DNA of 64,000 bases from a virus (Duplodnaviria > Caudoviricetes). The position numbers and the translations under genes are program-made. A model generated the notes under the pieces. That model made no database searches. It was given only the letters and a program-made list of their open reading frames with translations, and was not told the DNA's origin. This document shows, in pieces, positions 4,179 through 53,906 of the stretch. The stretch is taken from IMG/VR virus record IMGVR_UViG_3300025011_000016. The stretch is one strand, 5' to 3'. How positions within the stretch are numbered: the stretch's first letter is position 1; each line of letters opens with the position of its first letter.

Positions 4179-4472
4179 TTGAGTGGAATTCAACTCATAA
4201 CGATCGGTAATGTTGACATTACCGATCAAAAATATCGCAATGGGTCTTTAAAAAGTCCCGAATTAATTAAATTCGAATATGAATTGATATGTGAATTAGT
4301 TAAGAGCCGAAAAGAAAAGAGTCTTACCCAAAGAAATTTGGCTGAAATACTTGGATTTAGACAACAAAATATTTCAATGATTGAAAATCAACATGTTTCT
4401 CCAAGTTTAAGTACTATTCTTAGAATTGCAGATGTCCTTGACTTGAAACTAATATTTGTATCAAAAACGTAA
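4179..4472 (+). CDS. XRE-family helix-turn-helix protein
   Basis: RKEKSLTQRNLAEILGFRQQNISMIEN....PSLSTILRIADVL. Confidence 0.85.
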   Translation: MSGIQLITIGNVDITDQKYRNGSLKSPELIKFEYELICELVKSRKEKSLTQRNLAEILGFRQQNISMIENQHVSPSLSTILRIADVLDLKLIFVSKT

Positions 4473-4497
4473 TTAATGATTATAATAGGAGGATTTT

Positions 4498-4901
4498 ATG
4501 TTAATCAATATAAACATTGAAAGTCCTAAAGAAGAACTTGAATTAACAGATGGAATGGCTGAACGGAATGATGATATCTATAACAGTGTATTTGATTGTA
4601 TCCGTACATTGACTGAACAGCCGGATATGGAATGGGATATGGGGGTATCGGAGAAGTTACCGATGTTATTATTGATGAATTGACAACACTTGGATTACCA
4701 GTAAGATATCCAAGTGTTGTAACGGAAAATGATGGTACACAACATTATGAAGATCAGTTTAAACCATCTGATTTTTTAATAACCCCACATCCAATAACTA
4801 TTAGTGTTATTAAAAAATCACCATACGGTGATACGTTACCACCCACAAAAGAATTAGTACAACTAATGGAAGCTGGGAAAGTTGTTATTACTGAGTTTTA
4901 A
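4498..4901 (+). pseudogene. single gene split by a 1-nt frameshift (track ORFs 4498..4683 and 4632..4901)
   Basis: EWDMG continues as IGEVTDVII..YPSVVT in the other frame across G5 run 4641-4645; one RBS only. Confidence 0.55.
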
Positions 4902-4921
4902 TAATTAAGGAGGATAATAAA

Positions 4922-5680
4922 ATGAAAAATATCGTTACTAATGTTGTAGATTCAAATGAGTGTAAAAAGGTTGTGAAAACAACAACCTTTTTACACCATG
5001 AAGAAGATAATATTGTCACTGATTGTGAATATAATGAATCCATGGATGATATGGAGGCGGTACAAATCGATCCATTATTCATTACATTCATTAACGATCC
5101 AAGTGTTGAGGTGCAATTAGCTGCTGTCACTAAAGATGATTGGGCTATTAGCCATATTAGAAAGCCATGTATTGAAGCCCAGATGGAGTCTGTATCTCAG
5201 AACTGGGATAATATTCAGTATATTAGAAATCCCGATATAAACGTTCAAATACATGCTGTGACAGGCTGTGGTAATACTATTAAATACATTAAGAATCCGA
5301 GTGTTGAAATTCAGTTGCTTGCTGTAAAGAGAAACGGTCATAGTATTCAATATATAGAGAATCCTAATATATTGGTTCAAATAACTGCCATTGGAAGTTA
5401 TAGTTCATCTATTCAATATATCAAAGACCCTGGTTTATTCATCCAGGCATTATCAATTGGTTTAGATCCATTCAATATTCAATTAATAACCAATCCGTCT
5501 GAAGAAGTTCAATTAGCCGCCCTGGTAAATGATACTGATATTATTAGAGTTCTTAAAAATCCAAGTTGTATGGTACAATTATTCGCAGTTAAAATTGATC
5601 CGGGGTGTATTACATGCATTAAAGAACCACACCCAGAAGTTTTAGAATATTTAGAATCGATTAATTTTAAAATTGATTAA
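4922..5680 (+). CDS. DUF4116-like helical repeat protein with acidic N-terminus
   Basis: About 9 NP..VQL.AV repeats; AAGGAGG RBS. Confidence 0.75.
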   Translation: MKNIVTNVVDSNECKKVVKTTTFLHHEEDNIVTDCEYNESMDDMEAVQIDPLFITFINDPSVEVQLAAVTKDDWAISHIRKPCIEAQMESVSQNWDNIQYIRNPDINVQIHAVTGCGNTIKYIKNPSVEIQLLAVKRNGHSIQYIENPNILVQITAIGSYSSSIQYIKDPGLFIQALSIGLDPFNIQLITNPSEEVQLAALVNDTDIIRVLKNPSCMVQLFAVKIDPGCITCIKEPHPEVLEYLESINFKID

Positions 5681-5705
5681 CTCTATTAATTAGGAGGAGA
5701 TTAAA

Positions 5706-5951
5706 ATGCCAATTAATCCTATGAAGTTAACTACGTTTATTGGGTTTGCAATTCCACGAAATGTATTACTTAAACTTGATACAATTAATCTACCAAATTT
5801 TATTACCGTTGCCGAACGTGGTAACAAGGTTATACTTGGTGATAGTGGTATAAGCAATCTGGAGCATAGGACCTCTAGGATAAAGAAGGTTCTTAATCTC
5901 CTCGGCCTTAGTGAATACAAATTAAGATTATTTTGTTTTGTTGAAGTTTAA
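5706..5951 (+). CDS. hypothetical protein
   Basis: AGGAGG RBS. Confidence 0.6.
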   Translation: MPINPMKLTTFIGFAIPRNVLLKLDTINLPNFITVAERGNKVILGDSGISNLEHRTSRIKKVLNLLGLSEYKLRLFCFVEV

Positions 5952-5978
5952 TATGATGGGGGGGGGGTATTAATTAAT

Positions 5979-6200
5979 ATGAGAATATTTATTAACGGTG
6001 AGACACATGAGATTGATTCAACTATTCTATCATATGATGAGATTATACAACTAGCTTTTCCAAAAACTGATCCTAATATTGTGTATGCTGTGATAGCCAC
6101 TCATCGTAAAACTGAGTTTAAAGAAATAGTGCTTAGGGATTGTTTTGTTGCTATAACACAAGATATGAGATTTAGTGTCGGTAGAACTGATAATGCCTGA
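5979..6200 (+). CDS. stand-alone multi-ubiquitin (Multi_ubiq-like beta-grasp) protein
   Basis: IFINGETHEI..LSYDEIIQLAF..NIVYAV...V.I..DMRFSVGRTDNA follows the Multi_ubiq pattern. Confidence 0.6.
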   Translation: MRIFINGETHEIDSTILSYDEIIQLAFPKTDPNIVYAVIATHRKTEFKEIVLRDCFVAITQDMRFSVGRTDNA

Positions 6201-6201
6201 C

Positions 6202-6237
6202 AAAAAAAGAATACCCATTAATGGGTATTCTTTTTTT
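6202..6237 (+). terminator. intrinsic terminator
   Basis: 17-bp inverted repeat with A-tract/T-tract. Confidence 0.8.
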
Positions 6238-6257
6238 CTATGTACCAAGAGTATAAA

Positions 6258-6267
6258 TATATATTAT
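6258..6267 (+). promoter_or_regulatory. Putative early promoter motif TATATATTAT
   Basis: Exact 10-mer directly after a terminator. Confidence 0.55.
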
Positions 6268-6311
6268 TATATTGGTAAAAACATTATTACAATAAAGGGG
6301 GGATAAACTTT

Positions 6312-6401
6312 ATGAAACAAAAGAAAATTAATATGTCTATAAAAGAAATTGTGGAATGGATGAAAGAAGTTAAAACTATTTATACTAAATATAAGGGGTG
6401 A
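6312..6401 (+). CDS. 29-aa small protein
   Basis: AAAGGGGG RBS downstream of promoter motif; MKQKKINMSIKEIVEWMKEV.. Confidence 0.45.
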   Translation: MKQKKINMSIKEIVEWMKEVKTIYTKYKG

Positions 6402-6408
6402 TTAAATA

Positions 6409-6708
6409 ATGAAGAAAGTGTTACAAGTGTTTGAAGAAATTATTGCCGACGTAGAAAAATCTATTCAGGCGAGTAAGGATTTTGAAACATGTTCCGGGTG
6501 TTATATAACTGATAGTAGTTGGGATCAAATAATGCATCAAATGTATAAACTCAATAAGATTAAAGAAAAGTTAAGTGAATTAAAAAGTCTTCCCGAATGC
6601 AAATGTTCTAATTTACGTAAGGTTTGGACACCATTTAAAAAAATATATAGTAATTATTTTAACATAAATATTTACCAATGTAAGAAATGTAATAATTATT
6701 ATTCTTAA
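6409..6708 (+). CDS. hypothetical protein with C-terminal Zn ribbon
   Basis: CKC...CKKC. Confidence 0.6.
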   Translation: MKKVLQVFEEIIADVEKSIQASKDFETCSGCYITDSSWDQIMHQMYKLNKIKEKLSELKSLPECKCSNLRKVWTPFKKIYSNYFNINIYQCKKCNNYYS

Positions 6709-43062: not shown

Positions 43063-43096
43063 AATTAGATGCTGTATTTAAATACAGCATCTAATT
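43063..43096. repeat. perfect 34-bp palindrome
   Basis: aattagatgctgtattt aaatacagcatctaatt. Confidence 0.85.
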
Positions 43097-43107
43097 TTAT
43101 TTATCAA

Positions 43108-43119
43108 AACATTTTTATA
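43108..43119 (+). promoter_or_regulatory. AACA-N6-TA late-promoter-like motif
   Basis: AACA ttttta TA, 20 nt before ATG 43139. Confidence 0.45.
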
Positions 43120-43138
43120 ATAGAAAGGGGATTTATAA

Positions 43139-44628
43139 ATGGCTAAATTATCAGAGGCAAATAAGTTATATTTATTAAGTCTAAACCCAGATGATATTAC
43201 TTTTGATCTTTTATTAGAATTATTTGCCCATACAACTAAAAAAGATAAAGATAATAAAGTATCTGTAGTTAAAGGTAGAATGAATATAACTGATGAATTT
43301 GAATTAAAACCTAATGAATACTTTAATAAAGTTAAAGTAAGAACTACTGCAGGTCAGTTCATATATAACAAATTAATTATTGAAACTGAATTAAGTGAAG
43401 TATTAGGATATATAAGTGACCCTTTAAATAGTAAACGATTAAAAGAATTGGAAGATGTTTTATCTAAAGCTTTATTAACAGATAAAATAACTGTTGAAAC
43501 TATGGTTAACTATCTAAATAAAGTACAATGGCTGGCACTTCAGTTTCATTCAGTTATAAGTGGTTCATTTACTATGAATACTTTAAAACCAAACAAAGTT
43601 GTAACTGCAAGACGAAATAAATTGTTAAAAGATAACGCCGAGAAAATAAAAAATGGTGATGTTATTACAGCAGTTAATATTGAAAAAGAATTATTGAAAG
43701 TTGCACAAGAAGAATTGAAAAATGATCACGGTATGGATCTTTATAAATCTGGTGCCAGAGGATCATTTGGTAATAACTTTAAGAATATATCTGTTATAAA
43801 AGGTCCAGTATTCAATCCATCGAAAGGTGTATTTGATATAGTCACTTCTAACCTAATGGAAGGTATACAGAAGAACGAGCTTACATCAGCAGGTAATAGT
43901 ATTATCAGTGGTGCTTACCCTAAAATATATTGGGGCAATATAGCGTAAGGTATATTGAAAACTATTTAAATTGACGGGAAACTCCTTAGGACTTTATATA
44001 ATAAAGATTGGACAATCCGCAGCCAAGATTCTATAATAGAATAAGGTTCAACGACTAGAGTGAGAACTCGTAAATATTAATAGTATTGAAAATGATGGGA
44101 TCTTCGTATTGGAGATTATGATATAGTCTTGTATCCTAATTAATAATAGGGAAGTTCATAAGAGAACTGTATAGATTAATAATCTATATGAAAATAACGA
44201 AAGCCATAGGAACTGCTGTGTCAGGCTATTTTGCTAAACAAATGGTTGCCTCTTTACAAGCAGTAGTATTAGATTCTATTGGTTCAGATTGTAAATCAAA
44301 AGGAACCTTAAAAGTATTTCTTACTAAAAGTCTAGCGAATGATTTCCTATATAGATATATTGTAGAAGGAAGTAAATTGATTCTATTAGACGATAATAAT
44401 ATATCAAAATATATTGATAAATTTATACAGGTGAGATCTCCTATGTATTGTATATCATCCAAGTTATGCAGGGCCTGTGCGGGACAGATGTACAACAAGC
44501 TTAAGATTGATAATATAGGATTAACAGCCGCTAAAGTTTCAACCACTTTAACCAATTTATCAATGAAAAAATTTCATAATTCATCACAAAGTATAGTTTC
44601 CCTAAAAGTGGATGAATTATGTATCTAA
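43139..44628 (+). CDS. phage RNA polymerase beta' C-terminal subunit, spliced join(43139..43921,44200..44628), 403 aa
   Basis: Splicing gives GAYP|KAIGTAVSGYFAKQMVASL (bridge helix) and GLTAAKVSTTLTNLSMKKFH (trigger loop); SGARG motif; frame preserved. Confidence 0.85.
43922..44199 (+). mobile_element. group I intron 1 (278 nt, no ORF)
   Basis: P1 CCCU^AA/UUGGGG with U.G; ttgacgggaaactcc, aatccgcagc, ggttcaacgacta, gatatagtct; terminal G. Confidence 0.9.
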
Positions 44629-44647
44629 ACACCATCTTGATTTAAAT

Positions 44648-44657
44648 TATATATTAT
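44648..44657 (+). promoter_or_regulatory. Putative early promoter motif TATATATTAT
   Basis: Exact 10-mer between the two RNAP genes. Confidence 0.5.
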
Positions 44658-44717
44658 TAAAGTAATAATAAGAAAGGGGTTGATTAAGATGTAAATATAT
44701 TATTAGCCTATTAAAAT

Positions 44718-44750
44718 AAGAGATGATAAGTTTTAAACTTATCATCTCTT
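44718..44750. repeat. 16-bp inverted repeat in the leader of the beta'N gene
   Basis: aagagatgataagttt t aaacttatcatctctt. Confidence 0.75.
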
Positions 44751-44830
44751 TATATTATTTGTTAAAAATGAGAATTTAATATGTAATGGACAATAACATA
44801 AGGTCTACGAATAAAAGGAGGATAATTTAT

Positions 44831-47800
44831 ATGAGCCAACCCACAGGAGTGAAATTAGTTAAATTAGATTGGAATAAGGAGTGTGAAAAAGATTTTATAA
44901 CTGGTAAAGGTTTTGAAATTACTGAAGTTGCTTTTAAGAAAAAGGATGAGAAAACCTTTAAAGGGAAACCTGATGATTCAAATGGTAAGAAAGAAAAATC
45001 ATATAATGGTATGCACTCAAGTAGATACGCTTCGGATTAATTATTAGTCCCTTCATGTAGTAATACATGTTGTAAACTCTCTTAATTGCGGGGATCTCCT
45101 TAGAGCTTAAACTACTTATATAGTAATAACGTTTAAGATTGTATGATCCGCATCCAAAATTCTATTAAATAGATATGGTTCAACGACTAGAGAAATCTCG
45201 TAAATATAATTGTTATATTGAAATAGAGAGCAACCTAATTAATTAGGTTGATGATATAGTCTTGTATCCTAATTAACATTAGGGAAGTTCATTTGAGAAC
45301 TGTATAGAGTTACAATCTATATGAAAGTATCGTGGGGGGATGAAGATGCATTTGCAGAAAGATATTCCTGTAAATGTAAAGATTTAAAAGGTAGAGTTTA
45401 CGAAGATGAAATATGTAAAATGTGTGGTACTAAAGTAGTTTTTAAAGATGTTGATATGAAAATCACAGGATGGATAAAACTACAACATCATGAAATTATT
45501 CATCCGATATTCTATAAGATGATTAAATCTATTATAGGTGATAAAGTATTTAATGAGATAATTGAATATGATAAGGACATAACTAGAGAAGGAATTGCTT
45601 TAAGTAAAGAGGGTAAGAATCCATTTAAAGGTATTGGTTTGATTGAATTCAGAGAACGTTTCGATGAAATCTTGTTTTATTATAAAGATAAGAAAAAGAA
45701 TAAGATTGACTTAGTTAATGAAGTATTAGCTGAAAGAGAAAAAGTATTTACATTTTGTTTACCAGTTTATTCTTCTGTTTTAAGACCAGTATCATTTAAA
45801 GGTGAAAGTTATTACTATAACTTTATTGATAGAAAGTATAATGCCATATTTTCATTATCACGATTATTAAATACTAAAGGTCCAATGCCTAATGTTAATG
45901 GCATGAAAGTTAAAACAAGTAAGATGGATGAACCAACTATATTACAATCAATGCAAAAGAAAGTTATTGATCTATGGCAATTAATCTTCTCTGAAATTAA
46001 TCAGAAGTCGGGCCACATAAAGGATGGAGTTTGTCCCATCGTAGAGTGATTTACGTTGAAAACTATTTTTAATTGCGGGAATATTCTTAGAACTTCTTTA
46101 TGGAAGATTGGGCAATCCGCATCCAAGTCTCTTTTATATAAGAGAAAGGTTCAACGACTATCCTTTAGTGTTGAAATACACAATAGGAGTAGGGCCTAAG
46201 TAGGTGGGTGAGATTCCCTTAAATCGAAATAAAATGCATCTCGTTGGAGATGATGATATAGTCTGAACTTCTATTGAAAGATAGAGAGAGGTGAAATTCC
46301 TTTGCATTATTTTACAAATAATGTCTACGACTGCAAATTCTCGGTGGTAGGATCAACTTTAGTTCAAGAAATGTAATTATACCGGACCCACAACTAAAAT
46401 CCGATGAAATAAGATTAGGGTATCTTGCTTTTCTAGAGCTATTTAAATATGAAATAATTGCTCATGTCGTTAAGATGAATGATATTTCTGAAAATGAAGC
46501 ATATGAGCAATGGTTTAAAGCAAGTATCAACTATAACAAGAAGATTTATGAAGTGATGATGTACCTAGTTAAGAAAAGAAAACCACGAGTGATCATAAAC
46601 CGAAACCCTAAATAATGTGGGGCGTTATAGAGTGATCTATAAGAGTAAACTATTTTAATTGACGGGAAACTCCTTAGGGCTTCGTAAATGAAGATTGGAC
46701 AATCCGCAGCCAAGTCTCTTATATAAGAGAAAGGTTCAACGACTATCCTTTAGTGTTGAAATACACAATAGGAGTAGGGCCTAAGTAGGTGGGTGAGATT
46801 CCCTTAAATCGAAATGAAAGCATCTTTATAAGATGAAGATATAGTCTTATATCCTAATGAAAGTTAGGGAAGTTCATAAGAGAACTGAGCTACGTTACGT
46901 GTATCTCGAACTCGGGACAATTAATTACGGATCTGAACTCTTAATGAAGATAGTTGATATTAAAAATGAATATAAAGATGATTATACTATGAGTTTACCT
47001 ATTCAAATATTACGAGTACTAAACGCGGATTTGTAACAAAGTCCGGTTATAATAGTAATATTATAACGAGTTCCATGTGAACGCCTAACAAGCGGTGTGA
47101 GAGATATATTATGCTCTTGCTAACGGTAGAAGCGAAATATGCAGAATAAGCTTCGTAAGAGAATCTACGGTCCTGAAATATGGATAGCGTGACAATACCG
47201 TGCCAAGTTCCTATTAATTGTAAGTTCGCAAACAATCTACAAACAGTTAGGATGGTGAAATATCTTGCGTATACTGATTAAACCATATGGGGTAGTTTAT
47301 ATAATGAGAAATTTAATAGATACTAAGGTATATATCGGACAGACTGTAAATCTTGAGAGGCGAAAAAATGAACATAAAAACCGTAAATCCTCATCCAGTA
47401 AGAGATATAATTTTCATATTACTAAAGTTATAGAAGAATATGGATATGAAAATTTTGAATTTAAAGTTTTAGATGAAGCGTTTTCTAAAAAAGACTTAGA
47501 CGATAAAGAGAAATATTTTATATCCTTATTTAAATCCAATGATCCTAAATATGGATATAATTCAAGAGGAGGTAATTTACAAGAACCATTAAATCAGAGA
47601 ACTAAAGATTTAATGTCTAGTTCTCATATAGGCTTGACTGAAACTGCCATAACTAAAAGAAAAAAGTCTCATAAAATTTTAGCATTTAAAGATAATGTAT
47701 GTCTAATTGTGGATAGTGGTAAATTATTTGGTGATATGATTGGAAAAGATAGAAATAATGTAACAAATGCTTTACGAAAGGGAATAAAAATAAAAGGTTA

Positions 47801-48515
47801 CTATGTATTTTATCTAAGTAGTAAAAAACGTGAAGAAGTAATTAAGAAATCTGATGATTGGGCTTATTGCGAACTAAGCCGATTAATAGGAAACGGTGTA
47901 GAGGCCATCGAGCAATCGTATGTTATAGATTATATAACATATGATTGAGTAGAGTACTGGTCGGTTTGCGGGCCGATTGGGAAGCGCATGGCTCCAATAC
48001 TATAGATATATAATATTGGATGAAGATATGGTCCACCCCTATATGAAAATATAGGATGTGGTGTTCGACGGCCAATGTATATGACCGGTGATTCTTTAAT
48101 TGACGGGAATATCCTTAAAGCTTAGACTACTAATGTAATAATGTTTAAGATTGGACAATCCGCAGCCAAGTCTCTTATATAAGAGAAAGGTTCAACGACT
48201 AGAGTGAGAACTCGTAGATACTTTATGTATTGAAATGGGAAACCGATAGATTAAATCTATCGAAGATATAGTCTATTATCCTAATGAGTATTAGGGAAGT
48301 TCATAAGAGAACTGTATAGATTTATAATCTATATGAATATAAAGGATATATTGAATATTATTTCACTGAAGACTAAGAAACTAATTAAAGCTTATGATAA
48401 GACATTTAATCCGAGAAAGAATATGTTCATTTCTAGAAATGATGGATTATTTAATGATGATTTCAATCTACTAAAAGATCAACTTATTGGTCTATATGAG
48501 TTTAACAATATTTAA
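44831..48515 (+). CDS. phage RNA polymerase beta' N-terminal catalytic subunit, join(44831..45037,45333..46025,46334..46609,46917..47030,48064..48072,48345..48515), 489 aa
   Basis: Splicing restores Zn finger CKC..CKMC, KD|QILGGRINFSSRNVI, NRNP|TIN and NAD|FDG|DILN; all exons in frame; AAGGAGG RBS before ATG 44831. Confidence 0.88.
45038..45332 (+). mobile_element. group I intron 2 (295 nt, no ORF)
   Basis: P1 GGAU^UAA/UUAGUCC; ttgcggga, atccgcatcc, ggttcaacgacta, gatatagtct; terminal G. Confidence 0.9.
46026..46333 (+). mobile_element. group I intron 3 (308 nt, no ORF)
   Basis: P1 GGAU^/GUCC; ttgcgggaa, aatccgcatcc, ggttcaacgacta, gatatagtct; terminal G. Confidence 0.88.
46610..46916 (+). 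mobile_element. group I intron 4 (307 nt, no ORF)
   Basis: P1 CCCU^A/UGGGG; ttgacgggaaactcc, aatccgcagc, ggttcaacgacta, aagatatagtct; terminal G. Confidence 0.88.
47031..48063 (+). mobile_element. group I intron 5 (1033 nt) with homing endonuclease ORF, divergent core
   Basis: P1 CGGAU^UU/AAGUCCG; aataccgtgccaag; P7 ggcca 47903-07/tggtc 48029-33; terminal G. Confidence 0.82.
47265..47948 (+). CDS. intron-encoded GIY-YIG homing endonuclease
   Basis: GVVY..N.ID.KVYIGQT..LERR..EH, E.YFI..F....GYN; NUMOD3-like TKDLMSSSHIG; TTG start. Confidence 0.88.
   Translation: MRILIKPYGVVYIMRNLIDTKVYIGQTVNLERRKNEHKNRKSSSSKRYNFHITKVIEEYGYENFEFKVLDEAFSKKDLDDKEKYFISLFKSNDPKYGYNSRGGNLQEPLNQRTKDLMSSSHIGLTETAITKRKKSHKILAFKDNVCLIVDSGKLFGDMIGKDRNNVTNALRKGIKIKGYYVFYLSSKKREEVIKKSDDWAYCELSRLIGNGVEAIEQSYVIDYITYD
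48064..48072 (+). other. 9-nt micro-exon TTCGACGGC (Phe-Asp-Gly) of the RNAP active site
   Basis: Only sequence between the terminal G of intron 5 and intron 6; completes NADFDGD. Confidence 0.8.
48073..48344 (+). mobile_element. group I intron 6 (272 nt, no ORF)
   Basis: ttgacgggaa, aatccgcagc, ggttcaacgacta, aagatatagtct; 3' end atatg+9 nt ending in G as in introns 1 and 2. Confidence 0.85.
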
Positions 48516-51770: not shown

Positions 51771-53906
51771 ATGAATTATACTGATATCAATGATGCATAC
51801 CATAAAGAGATACTTGATCTAGCATCTAAATTTGACGCACCGAAGTATTATATAAATCGAGAATTGAGTTTTCTTGATTTTAATAAACGGGTGTTACATC
51901 AAGCATTAAGGAAAGAGATTCCATTATTAGAAAAATTAAAGTATCTTGGAATCACTGCTTCAAACTTAGATGAATTTACAATGGTTAGATTTTCATACTT
52001 ATTAAATAAGCTTGATTTAAATAGTGATCAAGAAGAATTGTCAGGTTTAACAGCTATGGAAGAATATGAACAAACTCTTGATGAAATACTTAAATTTAAA
52101 CATCTTCAATTACAGACATATGAAAAGTTAGTCAGTAAGCTCAATAAAAATAACATTCATATTTGTAAATTTAGTGAATTGAGCAGTAAAGAGAAAGGAT
52201 ATGTTGAAAAGTTATTCTCTCGTAATATATACCCATTAATAACTCCTATCACTTATGATACTTCTAAAGAACTTCCTTCACTGAAATCTAGACAACTTAA
52301 TATAGTGGTTTCATTAAAGGATAATCATAATCGAAATCTAGAGGTCATATCATTAATAACCCTAGATAAATCTTTAGATCGAATCTATAAGATAGAAAGT
52401 GATGACATTGAGGAGGATAAATATATCTTATTAGAAGAGATAGTATTTAATTTCCTTCATAGAATATTCATCAATAAAACTATTTTATATAAAGGTTGTA
52501 TGAGGATACTAAAGGAAGCTAATATAGATCTAGATAATGATACGGATATCTATATCACAGATCGTATGAAACAGAATTTACTTCAAAGGGAGTTAAGTCA
52601 ACCAATATTCATGGATGTGACAGAAGATATTCCCAAACACATTCTAAAGTTATTGGTAAATATATTCGATTTAAATAAACGACATATTTTTAAATCGAAT
52701 ATGATATTAAACTTATCATTCCTATCTAATTCACCAATCAAAAATGCTTCATTGGAATATGTCCCATTCAGTCCTCAGTTTCCTCAAGAATTGATAGGTG
52801 AACATGATATGTTTACAGCAATTGATACTAATGATATAATTCTCCACCATCCATATGAGAGTTATTCCCCTGTTGTAAATTTCATTGAACATGCATCTGT
52901 TGATCCAAATGTACTTGCCATTAAGCAAACTCTATATAGAGTATCCTCACCAGATTCACCAATAGTTGAGGCTTTATGTAGAGCTGCTGAGAATGGTAAA
53001 CAAGTTAGTGTATTATTAGAAATAAAGGCTCGTTTTGATGAAGATCGAAATATATCTTTAATTGAAAAATTAAAACTATCTGGATGTAAATTGATCTATG
53101 GAGTCGAGGAATTTAAAACTCATTGTAAATTTATTATTGTAGTTAGGAAAAGTAATAAGGGTTTACGATTATATTCTCATCTCGGAACTGGTAATTATAA
53201 CGATACTACAGCGAAGATATATACCGATCTATCATACTTTACATCTAAGGAAAAGATTGGTGAGGATTTACTGACAGTTTTCAATATACTATCAGGATTT
53301 TCAGAACCAACTATTGAAGTGAATAAGTTATTCTTTTCTCCTTATAATTTAAGAAGTAAGTTATATGAACTAATTGATCGTGAAATAGCTATAGCCAAAG
53401 AAGGTAATAAAGCTTCTATTACTTTCAAATTAAATTCATTATCTGATAAGGGGATGATTAAGAAACTTTATAAAGCATCCGAGGCTGGAGTTAAAATTAA
53501 TCTCATATGTAGAGGAATTTGCTCAATGAAAGCTATTAACAAGAATATATCCATTAGAAGTATTGTGGGTAGATTCTTAGAGCATAGTCGAATATATTAT
53601 TTCTACAATTCAAATAAACCATTGTTATTTATATCCAGTGCCGATTTATTAACTCGTAATTTAAATAAGAGATTTGAATTATTAATTCCATTAACTGACG
53701 CTGAGGTTAGAAGTAAACTATTAAATATACTAGATTCATATTTTAAAGATAACTTCAATACTTATTTAATGGATGATAAAGGATGTTATAAGTTACTTAA
53801 AGATACCAATGTTTTTAACATTCATGAGTACTTTATGAATAGGGCTATAGAGAATTACAAGCTAAAGAATATACCTAAGATGAGTTTTAAGAAAAAGAAA
53901 AAGTAA
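51771..53906 (+). CDS. ppk1: polyphosphate kinase 1
   Basis: YINRELSFLDFNKRV, SNLDEF, LHHPYESY, IKQTLYR, EIKARFDE, KTHCK (phospho-His), GTGNYN, SIVGRFLEHSRI, ISSAD. Confidence 0.95.
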   Translation: MNYTDINDAYHKEILDLASKFDAPKYYINRELSFLDFNKRVLHQALRKEIPLLEKLKYLGITASNLDEFTMVRFSYLLNKLDLNSDQEELSGLTAMEEYEQTLDEILKFKHLQLQTYEKLVSKLNKNNIHICKFSELSSKEKGYVEKLFSRNIYPLITPITYDTSKELPSLKSRQLNIVVSLKDNHNRNLEVISLITLDKSLDRIYKIESDDIEEDKYILLEEIVFNFLHRIFINKTILYKGCMRILKEANIDLDNDTDIYITDRMKQNLLQRELSQPIFMDVTEDIPKHILKLLVNIFDLNKRHIFKSNMILNLSFLSNSPIKNASLEYVPFSPQFPQELIGEHDMFTAIDTNDIILHHPYESYSPVVNFIEHASVDPNVLAIKQTLYRVSSPDSPIVEALCRAAENGKQVSVLLEIKARFDEDRNISLIEKLKLSGCKLIYGVEEFKTHCKFIIVVRKSNKGLRLYSHLGTGNYNDTTAKIYTDLSYFTSKEKIGEDLLTVFNILSGFSEPTIEVNKLFFSPYNLRSKLYELIDREIAIAKEGNKASITFKLNSLSDKGMIKKLYKASEAGVKINLICRGICSMKAINKNISIRSIVGRFLEHSRIYYFYNSNKPLLFISSADLLTRNLNKRFELLIPLTDAEVRSKLLNILDSYFKDNFNTYLMDDKGCYKLLKDTNVFNIHEYFMNRAIENYKLKNIPKMSFKKKKK

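Follow-up and report, generated by a model that had tools for sequence, protein, structure and literature searches.

The DNA considered here is a stretch of 64 kb (the window; IMG/VR record IMGVR_UViG_3300025011_000016) from an uncultured AR9-like jumbo phage of a groundwater metagenome, whose longest contig reaches 272.5 kb. Between positions 43139 and 48515 a locus of 5,377 nucleotides (nt) on the + strand carries a series of short open reading frames (ORFs) that resemble pieces of the RNA polymerase (RNAP) beta' subunit, and that gene callers divide into at least eight fragments. These fragments appear to be the exons of two genes, here called gene 1 and gene 2, which are interrupted by six group I introns (A to F in order of position). 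It is very likely that all six introns are genuine, five of them ORF-less mosaic paralogues and one bearing a GIY-YIG ORF, and that all of them must be spliced out to make both beta' halves.

Among sequenced phages the exon translations find only distant relatives at about 30–37% identity, including AR9/PBS1, vB_BpuM-BpSp, Yersinia phiR1-37, Listeria LPJP1 and jumbo phages of Staphylococcus and Fusobacterium. In tblastn searches gene 1 matches AR9 g264 (annotated as 'virion RNAP subunit', beta' C-terminal) with 31% identity over 98% (E=4e-32), and Staphylococcus phage genes annotated as 'viral RNA polymerase beta-prime' with 33–37% identity. Its first exon as a query recovers AR9 g264, LPJP1 and the Staphylococcus jumbo phages at 31–37% over 95–98% by the same method, and its second exon gives a weak Pfam match to RNA_pol_Rpb1_5. 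By this homology gene 1 is the C-terminal half of a virion-RNAP beta' subunit (AR9 gp264 type) with one intron. The exons of gene 2 match AR9 g270 and phiR1-37 g274 (tblastn), and its predicted spliced product aligns end to end with both. A profile built from the close relatives of gene 2 matches beta' of AR9's non-virion RNAP (nvRNAP; PDB 7S00/7S01 chain d) with E=1e-58, followed by the phiKZ nvRNAP and then by cellular beta'/Rpb1, and exon 3 matches Pfam RNA_pol_Rpb1_2 (E=4e-5). The homology of gene 2 is full-length and takes in the Zn finger, the NRNP motif and the Mg-binding (N/G)AD(F/Y)DGD loop, and NADFDGD is complete only once introns E and F have been removed. Gene 2 is by the same reasoning the N-terminal half of a non-virion-RNAP beta' subunit (AR9 gp270 type) with five introns, and the two genes would be parts of two different polymerases and not of one enzyme. 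Both predicted spliced frames are open, giving products of 403 amino acids (aa) for gene 1 and 489 aa for gene 2.

The introns were identified with the Rfam model RF00028 (Intron_gpI; gathering score 50 bits), which gives five + strand matches above the gathering score with E-values from 1e-12 to 1e-25; the rest of the window gave no further match at that score. These matches correspond to introns A, B, C, D and F (Table 1), and intron E is treated separately below. Together the six introns make up 2,493 nt of the locus, and five of them fall within the 1.47 kb of coding sequence of gene 2, a density of one per roughly 290 nt. Their positions follow the most conserved parts of the two proteins (^ marks an insertion point): B lies 11 residues before the first Zn-finger Cys, C inside GHIKD^QILGGRINFSSR, D at NRNP^T, E and F in NAD^FDG^D, and A in the bridge-helix region of gene 1.

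Table 1. Predicted exons, introns and associated features of the two polymerase genes (positions in the window; ^ marks the insertion point of an intron).
Feature	Position	Strand	Description
Terminator-like hairpin upstream of gene 1	43063-43096	+	15-bp stem then T-rich tail
Gene 1 exon 1	43139..43921	+	261 aa; ends ...ISGAYP
RF00028 match, intron A	43911-44151	+	63.9 bits
Intron A	43922-44199	+	278 nt, ORF-less; P1 exon CCCU / guide GGGG; junction AYP^KAIGT
Gene 1 exon 2	44200..44628	+	142 aa + stop; bridge-helix region KAIGTAVSGYFAKQMV...; aligned to AR9 g264, LPJP1, P0002-P0008
Terminator-like hairpin between genes	44718-44750	+	15-bp stem then T-rich tail
Gene 2 exon 1	44831..45037	+	69 aa; AAAGGAGG upstream; ends ...RYASD
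RF00028 match, intron B	45028-45284	+	58.1 bits
Intron B	45038-45332	+	295 nt, ORF-less; P1 GGAU/GUCC; junction YASD^WGDED
Gene 2 exon 2	45333..46025	+	231 aa; Zn finger CKC...CKMC; 70% identity to L007
RF00028 match, intron C	45989-46286	+	69.0 bits
Intron C	46026-46333	+	308 nt, ORF-less; P1 GGAU/GUCC; junction GHIKD^QILGGRINFS
Gene 2 exon 3	46334..46609	+	92 aa; ends ...INRNP
RF00028 match, intron D	46600-46869	+	100.7 bits
Intron D	46610-46916	+	307 nt, ORF-less; P1 CCCU/GGGG; junction NRNP^TINYGS
Gene 2 exon 4	46917..47030	+	38 aa; ends ...LRVLNAD
Intron E	47031-48063	+	1033 nt, GIY-YIG ORF; P1 CGGAU(UU)/(AA)GUCCG; junction LNAD^FDG
Putative GIY-YIG homing-endonuclease ORF in intron E	47304..47948	+	214 aa, intact; called as a gene in L023, L025
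Gene 2 exon 5 (micro-exon)	48064..48072	+	9 nt, TTCGACGGC; encodes F-D-G of NADFDGD
RF00028 match, intron F	48056-48296	+	58.8 bits
Intron F	48073-48344	+	272 nt, ORF-less, without P2; junction FDG^DILNII
Gene 2 exon 6	48345..48515	+	56 aa + stop; DILNIISLK...IGLYEFNNI

The exact junctions are fixed by relatives that carry no introns. A large protein collection holds many uninterrupted 402-aa relatives of gene 1 at 63–70% identity (P0002-P0008), and on their contigs, which are syntenic, the next RNAP gene is an uninterrupted one of 470–471 aa (L007 9524-10936; L006 7010-8425); these intron-less gene 2 alleles (L007/L013 and L006) have 69–74% amino-acid identity to gene 2. When each intron is removed the products align without gaps across all six junctions to L006, L007 and P0002-P0008, and all six exons are open, 64–74% identical to their intact relatives and free of frameshifts and stops. 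The residues at junction A are identical in the intron-less P0002, P0003, P0004 and P0008, junction B corresponds to YATD^WEDED of L007 and L006, junctions C and D are identical in L007 and L006, and around E and F the exon DNA, GCGGAT^TTCGACGGC^GATAT, agrees letter for letter with the intron-less L006 allele. The 9-nt exon between E and F is required for a gapless alignment to L006, L007, AR9 and phiR1-37. Placing the 3' ends of A, B and F immediately behind their common CTATATG was considered and rejected, as this leaves three extra residues relative to the intron-less homologues (PKI/T, KVS) and would insert NIK within DFDG-D; the true sites of these three introns lie 9 nt further on. The close relatives (L006-L013, 63–74% identity) have no intron in either gene and no group I match at the gathering score. 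A metagenome scan found nothing with a single protein as the query and succeeded only with an alignment, and a scan of IMG/VR with exon 2 found no relatives.

Further features of group I introns are found at these homology-set junctions. The last intron base is G in all six introns (G48063 in E, G48344 in F), an in-frame stop lies 0–8 codons past every 5' splice site, and P1 hairpins that place U·G at the 5' splice site were folded for A, B, D and E and are assigned to C by homology with B. An RNAalifold consensus of A, B, C, D and F contains P1, P2, P4, P5, P5a, P6, P7, P9, P9.1 and P9.2, and 26 of its 62 pairs stay paired despite changes on both sides. Within P1 the guide covaries with the exon among the paralogues (CCCU/GGGG as opposed to GGAU/GUCC). 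Such covariation is what selection for a working ribozyme would predict, and is unlike the pattern of decaying repeats.

The initial annotation of the window had described six group I introns of 272–1033 nt occupying about 2.5 kb of a 5.4-kb locus, five of them in one gene and five without an endonuclease, each lying in or beside a conserved motif and each restoring the frame on removal; in all of this it is borne out, including the locations at the Zn finger, GHIKD, NRNP, the catalytic loop and the bridge helix, and the comparison with intron-less alleles that it proposed supports every junction. It had also given each intron a P1 helix and a terminal G, of which the G holds throughout and a canonical P1 in five. 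The covariance-model search that it proposed detects five of the six above threshold, intron E being only partly recognised. Its reading of two adjacent RNAP beta' genes stands as to the subunit and is refined as to the enzyme, one gene belonging to the virion and the other to the non-virion polymerase.

Intron E differs from the others in sequence and in content. A permissive RF00028 scan of 5.9 kb gives a partial match at 47916-48055 (32.5 bits, E=1.6e-5) in the 3' half of this intron, spanning P8, J8/7, the 3' strand of P7 and P9 (P8 to P9 at 47993-48055). Its minimum-free-energy (MFE) fold contains P1, a P2 hairpin, a long internal stem that holds the ORF, P8 and P9; folds of this kind cannot show the P3/P7 pseudoknot, and the P3-P7 assignment in intron E is tentative. 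The intron is unrelated in sequence to the other five and of a separate lineage from A, B, C, D and F; at the DNA level it matches nothing but 55 nt of Clostridium phages. It is also the only one with room for a protein. The N-terminal part of its ORF (residues 2–78) matches Pfam PF01541 (E=2e-9, 38 bits against a cut-off of 22.6), and its best phage matches by tblastn are annotated as homing or GIY-YIG endonucleases.

The other five introns, A, B, C, D and F, are paralogues of 272–308 nt with a mean column identity of 69% and shared cores (AAUUG(A)CGGG, AAUCCGCAGCC, GUUCAACGACUA and GAUAUAGUC). They resemble one another differently along their length: the P1-P2 module pairs A with D (63%) and B with C (61%), the P7.x / P3' / P8 module pairs C with D (87%), the 3' tail groups A with F (94%) and A with B (85%), and D and F have an identical 55-nt stretch of the core in common. 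Such mosaicism indicates recombination between intron copies. The core is found by blastn in 261 phage records, among which Staphylococcus K/Twort-like phages dominate and AR9 and Internexus have 9–10 places each, and on these matches A, B, C, D and F are placed in a common Firmicute-phage intron family. A search of the phage collection for near-identical DNA gave only a 52-nt intron-core match to Vibrio phages: positions 46836-46887 of intron D (J8/7 to P9.1) are 94% identical to the N4-like Vibrio cholerae phages JA-1, VCO139 and JSF3. The counterpart region in those phages is annotated as an HNH homing endonuclease gene and is probably an unannotated intron 3' end.

The family extends beyond the window. 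A contig that overlaps it with 100% identity over 11,966 nt (L028) carries five RF00028 matches at gathering level (57–89 bits) at 4341-6429, on the - strand of the locus, in 2.1 kb of a fragmented DnaB-like gene; the equivalent window positions would be 66,241-68,329, just past the window end. These dnaB introns have the same core and the same 'aagttcataagagaactg...tatatgaaaataacg' tail as A, B and F, each has a different exon/guide pair, and some of the dnaB exons must be very short. In all, 11 family members were verified in about 25 kb (six at the RNAP locus and five in dnaB).

The same motifs appear to be interrupted elsewhere in this phage clade. In distant relatives, at about 32% identity, group I matches below threshold fall in the same catalytic loop at other positions, at MG^ADFDGD in L018 and NAD-Y(1 nt)^DGD in L022 (matches at L018 88-213 and 2079-2511; L022 7197-7515). 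A member of the family that shares the 3' tail lies in L018 as well, downstream of site A by a few codons. A number of gene 1 relatives are called as truncated ORFs that end at differing points around ...GAYPKAIGT... or the bridge helix (P0017, 283 aa; P0038, 262 aa; and about a dozen others of 258–283 aa), as if introns had inserted at several positions close to one another. On these matches and truncations, the bridge helix and the catalytic loop would be recurrent intron targets in the clade.

The catalytic loop of gene 2 is the most unusual part of the locus. NADFDGD is spread over three exons, and the 9-nt middle exon lies between introns of two lineages. The P1 of intron F takes up eight of the nine micro-exon nucleotides, and docking of the 3' splice site of intron E probably needs the same nucleotides, such that the reactions of E and F would compete or be ordered. 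In addition, introns B, C and E of gene 2 have one common 4-nt exon/guide pair (GGAU/GUCC). Exon skipping was described for such an arrangement in phage Twort and by analogy might occur here. The locus raises the questions of whether two introns can share a 9-nt exon for P1 and 3' docking, whether C·A works at a natural splice site, and whether identical guides in one mRNA cause exon skipping.

In the proposed mechanism each intron would fold on the pre-mRNA, with its internal guide pairing with the last 4–7 exon nucleotides to form P1. Free guanosine would attack after the wobble-paired U (in intron F, after a C opposite A), and the freed exon end would then attack after the terminal G, joining the exons. 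The predicted 403-aa and 489-aa proteins would have a layout identical to that of the intron-less proteins of the sister phages, and the predicted product at the E/F junction would read ...GCGGAT-TTCGACGGC-GATATATTG. For an active non-virion polymerase, five introns would have to be removed correctly from a single mRNA, two of them flanking the 9-nt exon that supplies F-D-G of the Mg-binding loop, while the virion polymerase would need one such event; the dependence of phage transcription on six splicing events, as initially stated, was reasonable and is better expressed as one event for one enzyme and five for another. The introns may persist because they are located at codons where imprecise loss would be lethal. 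Intron E may home through its putative endonuclease, and the ORF-less introns would most likely have been spread or kept by recombination and co-conversion between co-infecting genomes and between intron copies.

Several observations weigh against this account. The score of intron E lies below the gathering score, and its 5' half alone gave no group I match when compared with Rfam. For intron C the MFE fold of the P1 segment favours a register with U-A instead of U·G at the junction. The route by which the ORF-less introns spread is conjectural. Splicing at the six junctions is inferred from sequence only, because RNA data were not found: the data sets listed as containing the locus sequence are groundwater metagenomes and include no RNA set, and metatranscriptome runs of the same study are nearly devoid of its sequence words. 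Compared with its paralogues, intron F is missing 22 nt and with them P2, and at its cleavage site C48072 stands opposite A48084 instead of U·G, in a P1 (UCGACGG paired with CCGGUGA) that is otherwise continuous (UCGACGG-C-CA / UG-A-CCGGUGA). The boundary is immovable, since the exons have to encode the conserved Gly-Asp and this codon is likewise GGC or GGA in intron-less alleles. To our knowledge C·A is rare at natural group I 5' splice sites, almost all group I introns having U·G. Judged from these features, the autonomous activity of intron F is the least certain of the six, because it lacks P2 and has C·A for U·G.

It could be, then, that the introns are genuine but that at least one of them, above all F and possibly E, is unable to splice unaided and requires a trans-acting protein or a particular order of splicing, or that gene 2 is a decaying pseudogene in this lineage. 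The defects of intron F just described, the competition that it may face with intron E for the micro-exon and the failure of RF00028 to recognise the 5' core of E are what one would expect in that case. Against this stand the open and well-conserved exons and the AR9 g270 intron, which at the same site also lacks P2 and yet belongs to a gene that its GenBank record annotates as joined. A passage in PMC5769748, citing Doudna et al. 1989, describes protonated C·A+ as isosteric with G·U and able to replace it in P1, and the C·A of intron F is plausible because C·A+ would be such a functional substitute. The recurrence of the identical sequence in several samples, as expected of a replicating phage, also speaks against this reading. 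We regard a failure of unaided splicing as improbable on this evidence. That the interruptions instead arose in assembly, are mobile elements of another kind or are natural splits between separately translated gene parts is almost certainly wrong. Jumbo-phage beta and beta' genes are indeed naturally split into separate ORFs (PMC7598289), but a 3-codon exon and exons without a start codon or ribosome-binding site would not be translatable alone, and five of the insertions score 58–101 bits against the group I model. Two short-read Logan contigs (L026 and L027, window about 43,065-44,018) do break off inside intron A, at about 44007-44018, and repeated intron cores probably fragment assemblies of such genomes; the locus is nevertheless not an assembly artefact, because 5.7 kb are 100% identical across three independent assemblies (ENA ERZ27254731, ENA ERZ28564079 and JGI 3300025000).

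With six genuine group I introns as the preferred reading, the manner of their arrival may be considered separately. The ORF-less introns might have come by reverse splicing, an RNA-level transposition into guide-matching mRNA sites, and not by DNA-level homing or recombination. Introns A and D both follow ACCCU with guide GGGG, and B and C both follow GGAU with GUCC; the P1-P2 module pairs these same introns while the cores group differently, guide sharing of this kind among six sites would arise by chance in fewer than 1 in 1000 cases (a rough estimate that takes bases as uniform), and the close relatives have none of these introns. However, the unrelated intron E also uses GGAU/GUCC, and the sharing may in part reflect codon context (Asp GAU, Pro CCU). 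As every one of the five dnaB introns has an exon/guide pair of its own, the evidence for a universal guide that would point to reverse splicing is weak, and the mosaicism shows DNA recombination between copies, which could move modules with no RNA step. Reverse splicing is consequently possible but, in our view, rather unlikely. A broader picture, in which the locus is the visible piece of the densest viral group I intron swarm yet, can be offered tentatively, although we would lean against it in full: ORF-less mini-introns would colonise conserved codons by exchange of P1-P2 guide modules or by reverse splicing, would leave 9-nt active-site exons and tolerate C·A, and both polymerases would be gated by ribozyme folding.

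Some further features of the region may be recorded. The terminator-like hairpins on either side of gene 1 (Table 1) suggest that the two genes are separate transcription units; in the region as a whole 7 terminator-like sites were counted, shuffles giving an expectation of 1.4, and several of the 7 are opposite-strand intron helices. Exon 1 of gene 2 contains at window positions 44930-44990 a lysine-rich N-terminal insertion of ~16 residues (…KKKDEKTFKGKPDDSNGKK…) for which L006 and L007, the 470-aa relatives, have no counterpart. Downstream of the locus lies a 711-aa ORF (51771-53906, + strand). The product of the corresponding gene has the domains PP_kinase_N, PP_kinase and PP_kinase_C both in L028, whose sequence is identical, and in L007, a relative; a PPK1-like auxiliary gene is unusual in a phage.

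Several known systems allow the locus to be placed. One of them is g189 of the Bacillus jumbo phage AR9, which encodes the N-terminal half of the virion RNAP beta subunit and is annotated as a join of six pieces. Like the locus described here it is an RNAP subunit gene with five cores of the same family (TTCAACGACTA / GATATAGTC R/S pairs) and a single endonuclease; it differs in that the subunit is beta and not beta', and the endonuclease (g190) HNH and not GIY-YIG. The AR9 beta' homologues of the two genes have one intron (g270) and none (g264). The g270 intron resembles intron F in lying in the same gene at the same codon boundary (GAC GGT^...G^GAC GTA), between Gly and the last Asp of D(F/Y)DGD, and in lacking P2, with 28 nt from the splice site to AAUUG. 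It differs in having a canonical U·G (GACGGU/GCCGUC) and an HNH ORF (g271), whereas intron F is ORF-less with C·A, and g270 has no second intron 9 nt upstream. That intron F is an orthologue of the g270 intron was considered and is unsupported; a lenient pairwise alignment, with percentages that are unreliable, makes F look more similar to its local paralogues.

Exon skipping has its precedent in Staphylococcus phage Twort, where orf142 has three group I introns in one gene and skips exons, according to a passage in PMC11878797 that cites Landthaler & Shub 1999. Gene 2 shares with orf142 the intron family and the similar guides that make skipping possible; it has five introns and not three, in another gene, and its splicing and any skipping are predicted from sequence where those of Twort are experimental. 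For mobility the relevant case is the RNAP group I intron of PhiPA3, whose HNH endonuclease gp210 can cut the intron-less allele of a co-infecting relative and plays a part in the competition of phages that infect together (PMC11620839; reviewed in PMC12908238). The GIY-YIG protein of intron E could by analogy act likewise on intron-less sister phages such as L006 and L007, although PhiPA3 has a single intron, is a Pseudomonas chimallivirus and uses an HNH nickase. In the AR9-like Staphylococcus jumbo phages of the MarsHill type both virion and non-virion RNAP genes are disrupted by introns, and exon numbers vary between close relatives (10.1101/2020.12.14.422802); their gene for the N-terminal half of the non-virion beta' is reported intact, whereas here it has five introns.

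In light of these cases the novelty implied by the initial annotation was too high. Five introns in one RNAP gene, mostly without an endonuclease, are not new in kind, since g189 of AR9 has five of the same family with one HNH gene and its g270 has an intron at the same DG^D site, and no new principle follows where multi-intron RNAP genes had already been shown by AR9. A practical consequence is that, unless introns are taken into account, annotation of metagenomes will overlook polymerase subunits of jumbo phages or give them the wrong size. The locus also offers a natural before-and-after system for the selfish-ribozyme load of an essential gene, with intron-free sister alleles for comparison. 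What is new in this locus is the genes and sites affected, the density of the introns, the 9-nt active-site exon and the C·A splice site.

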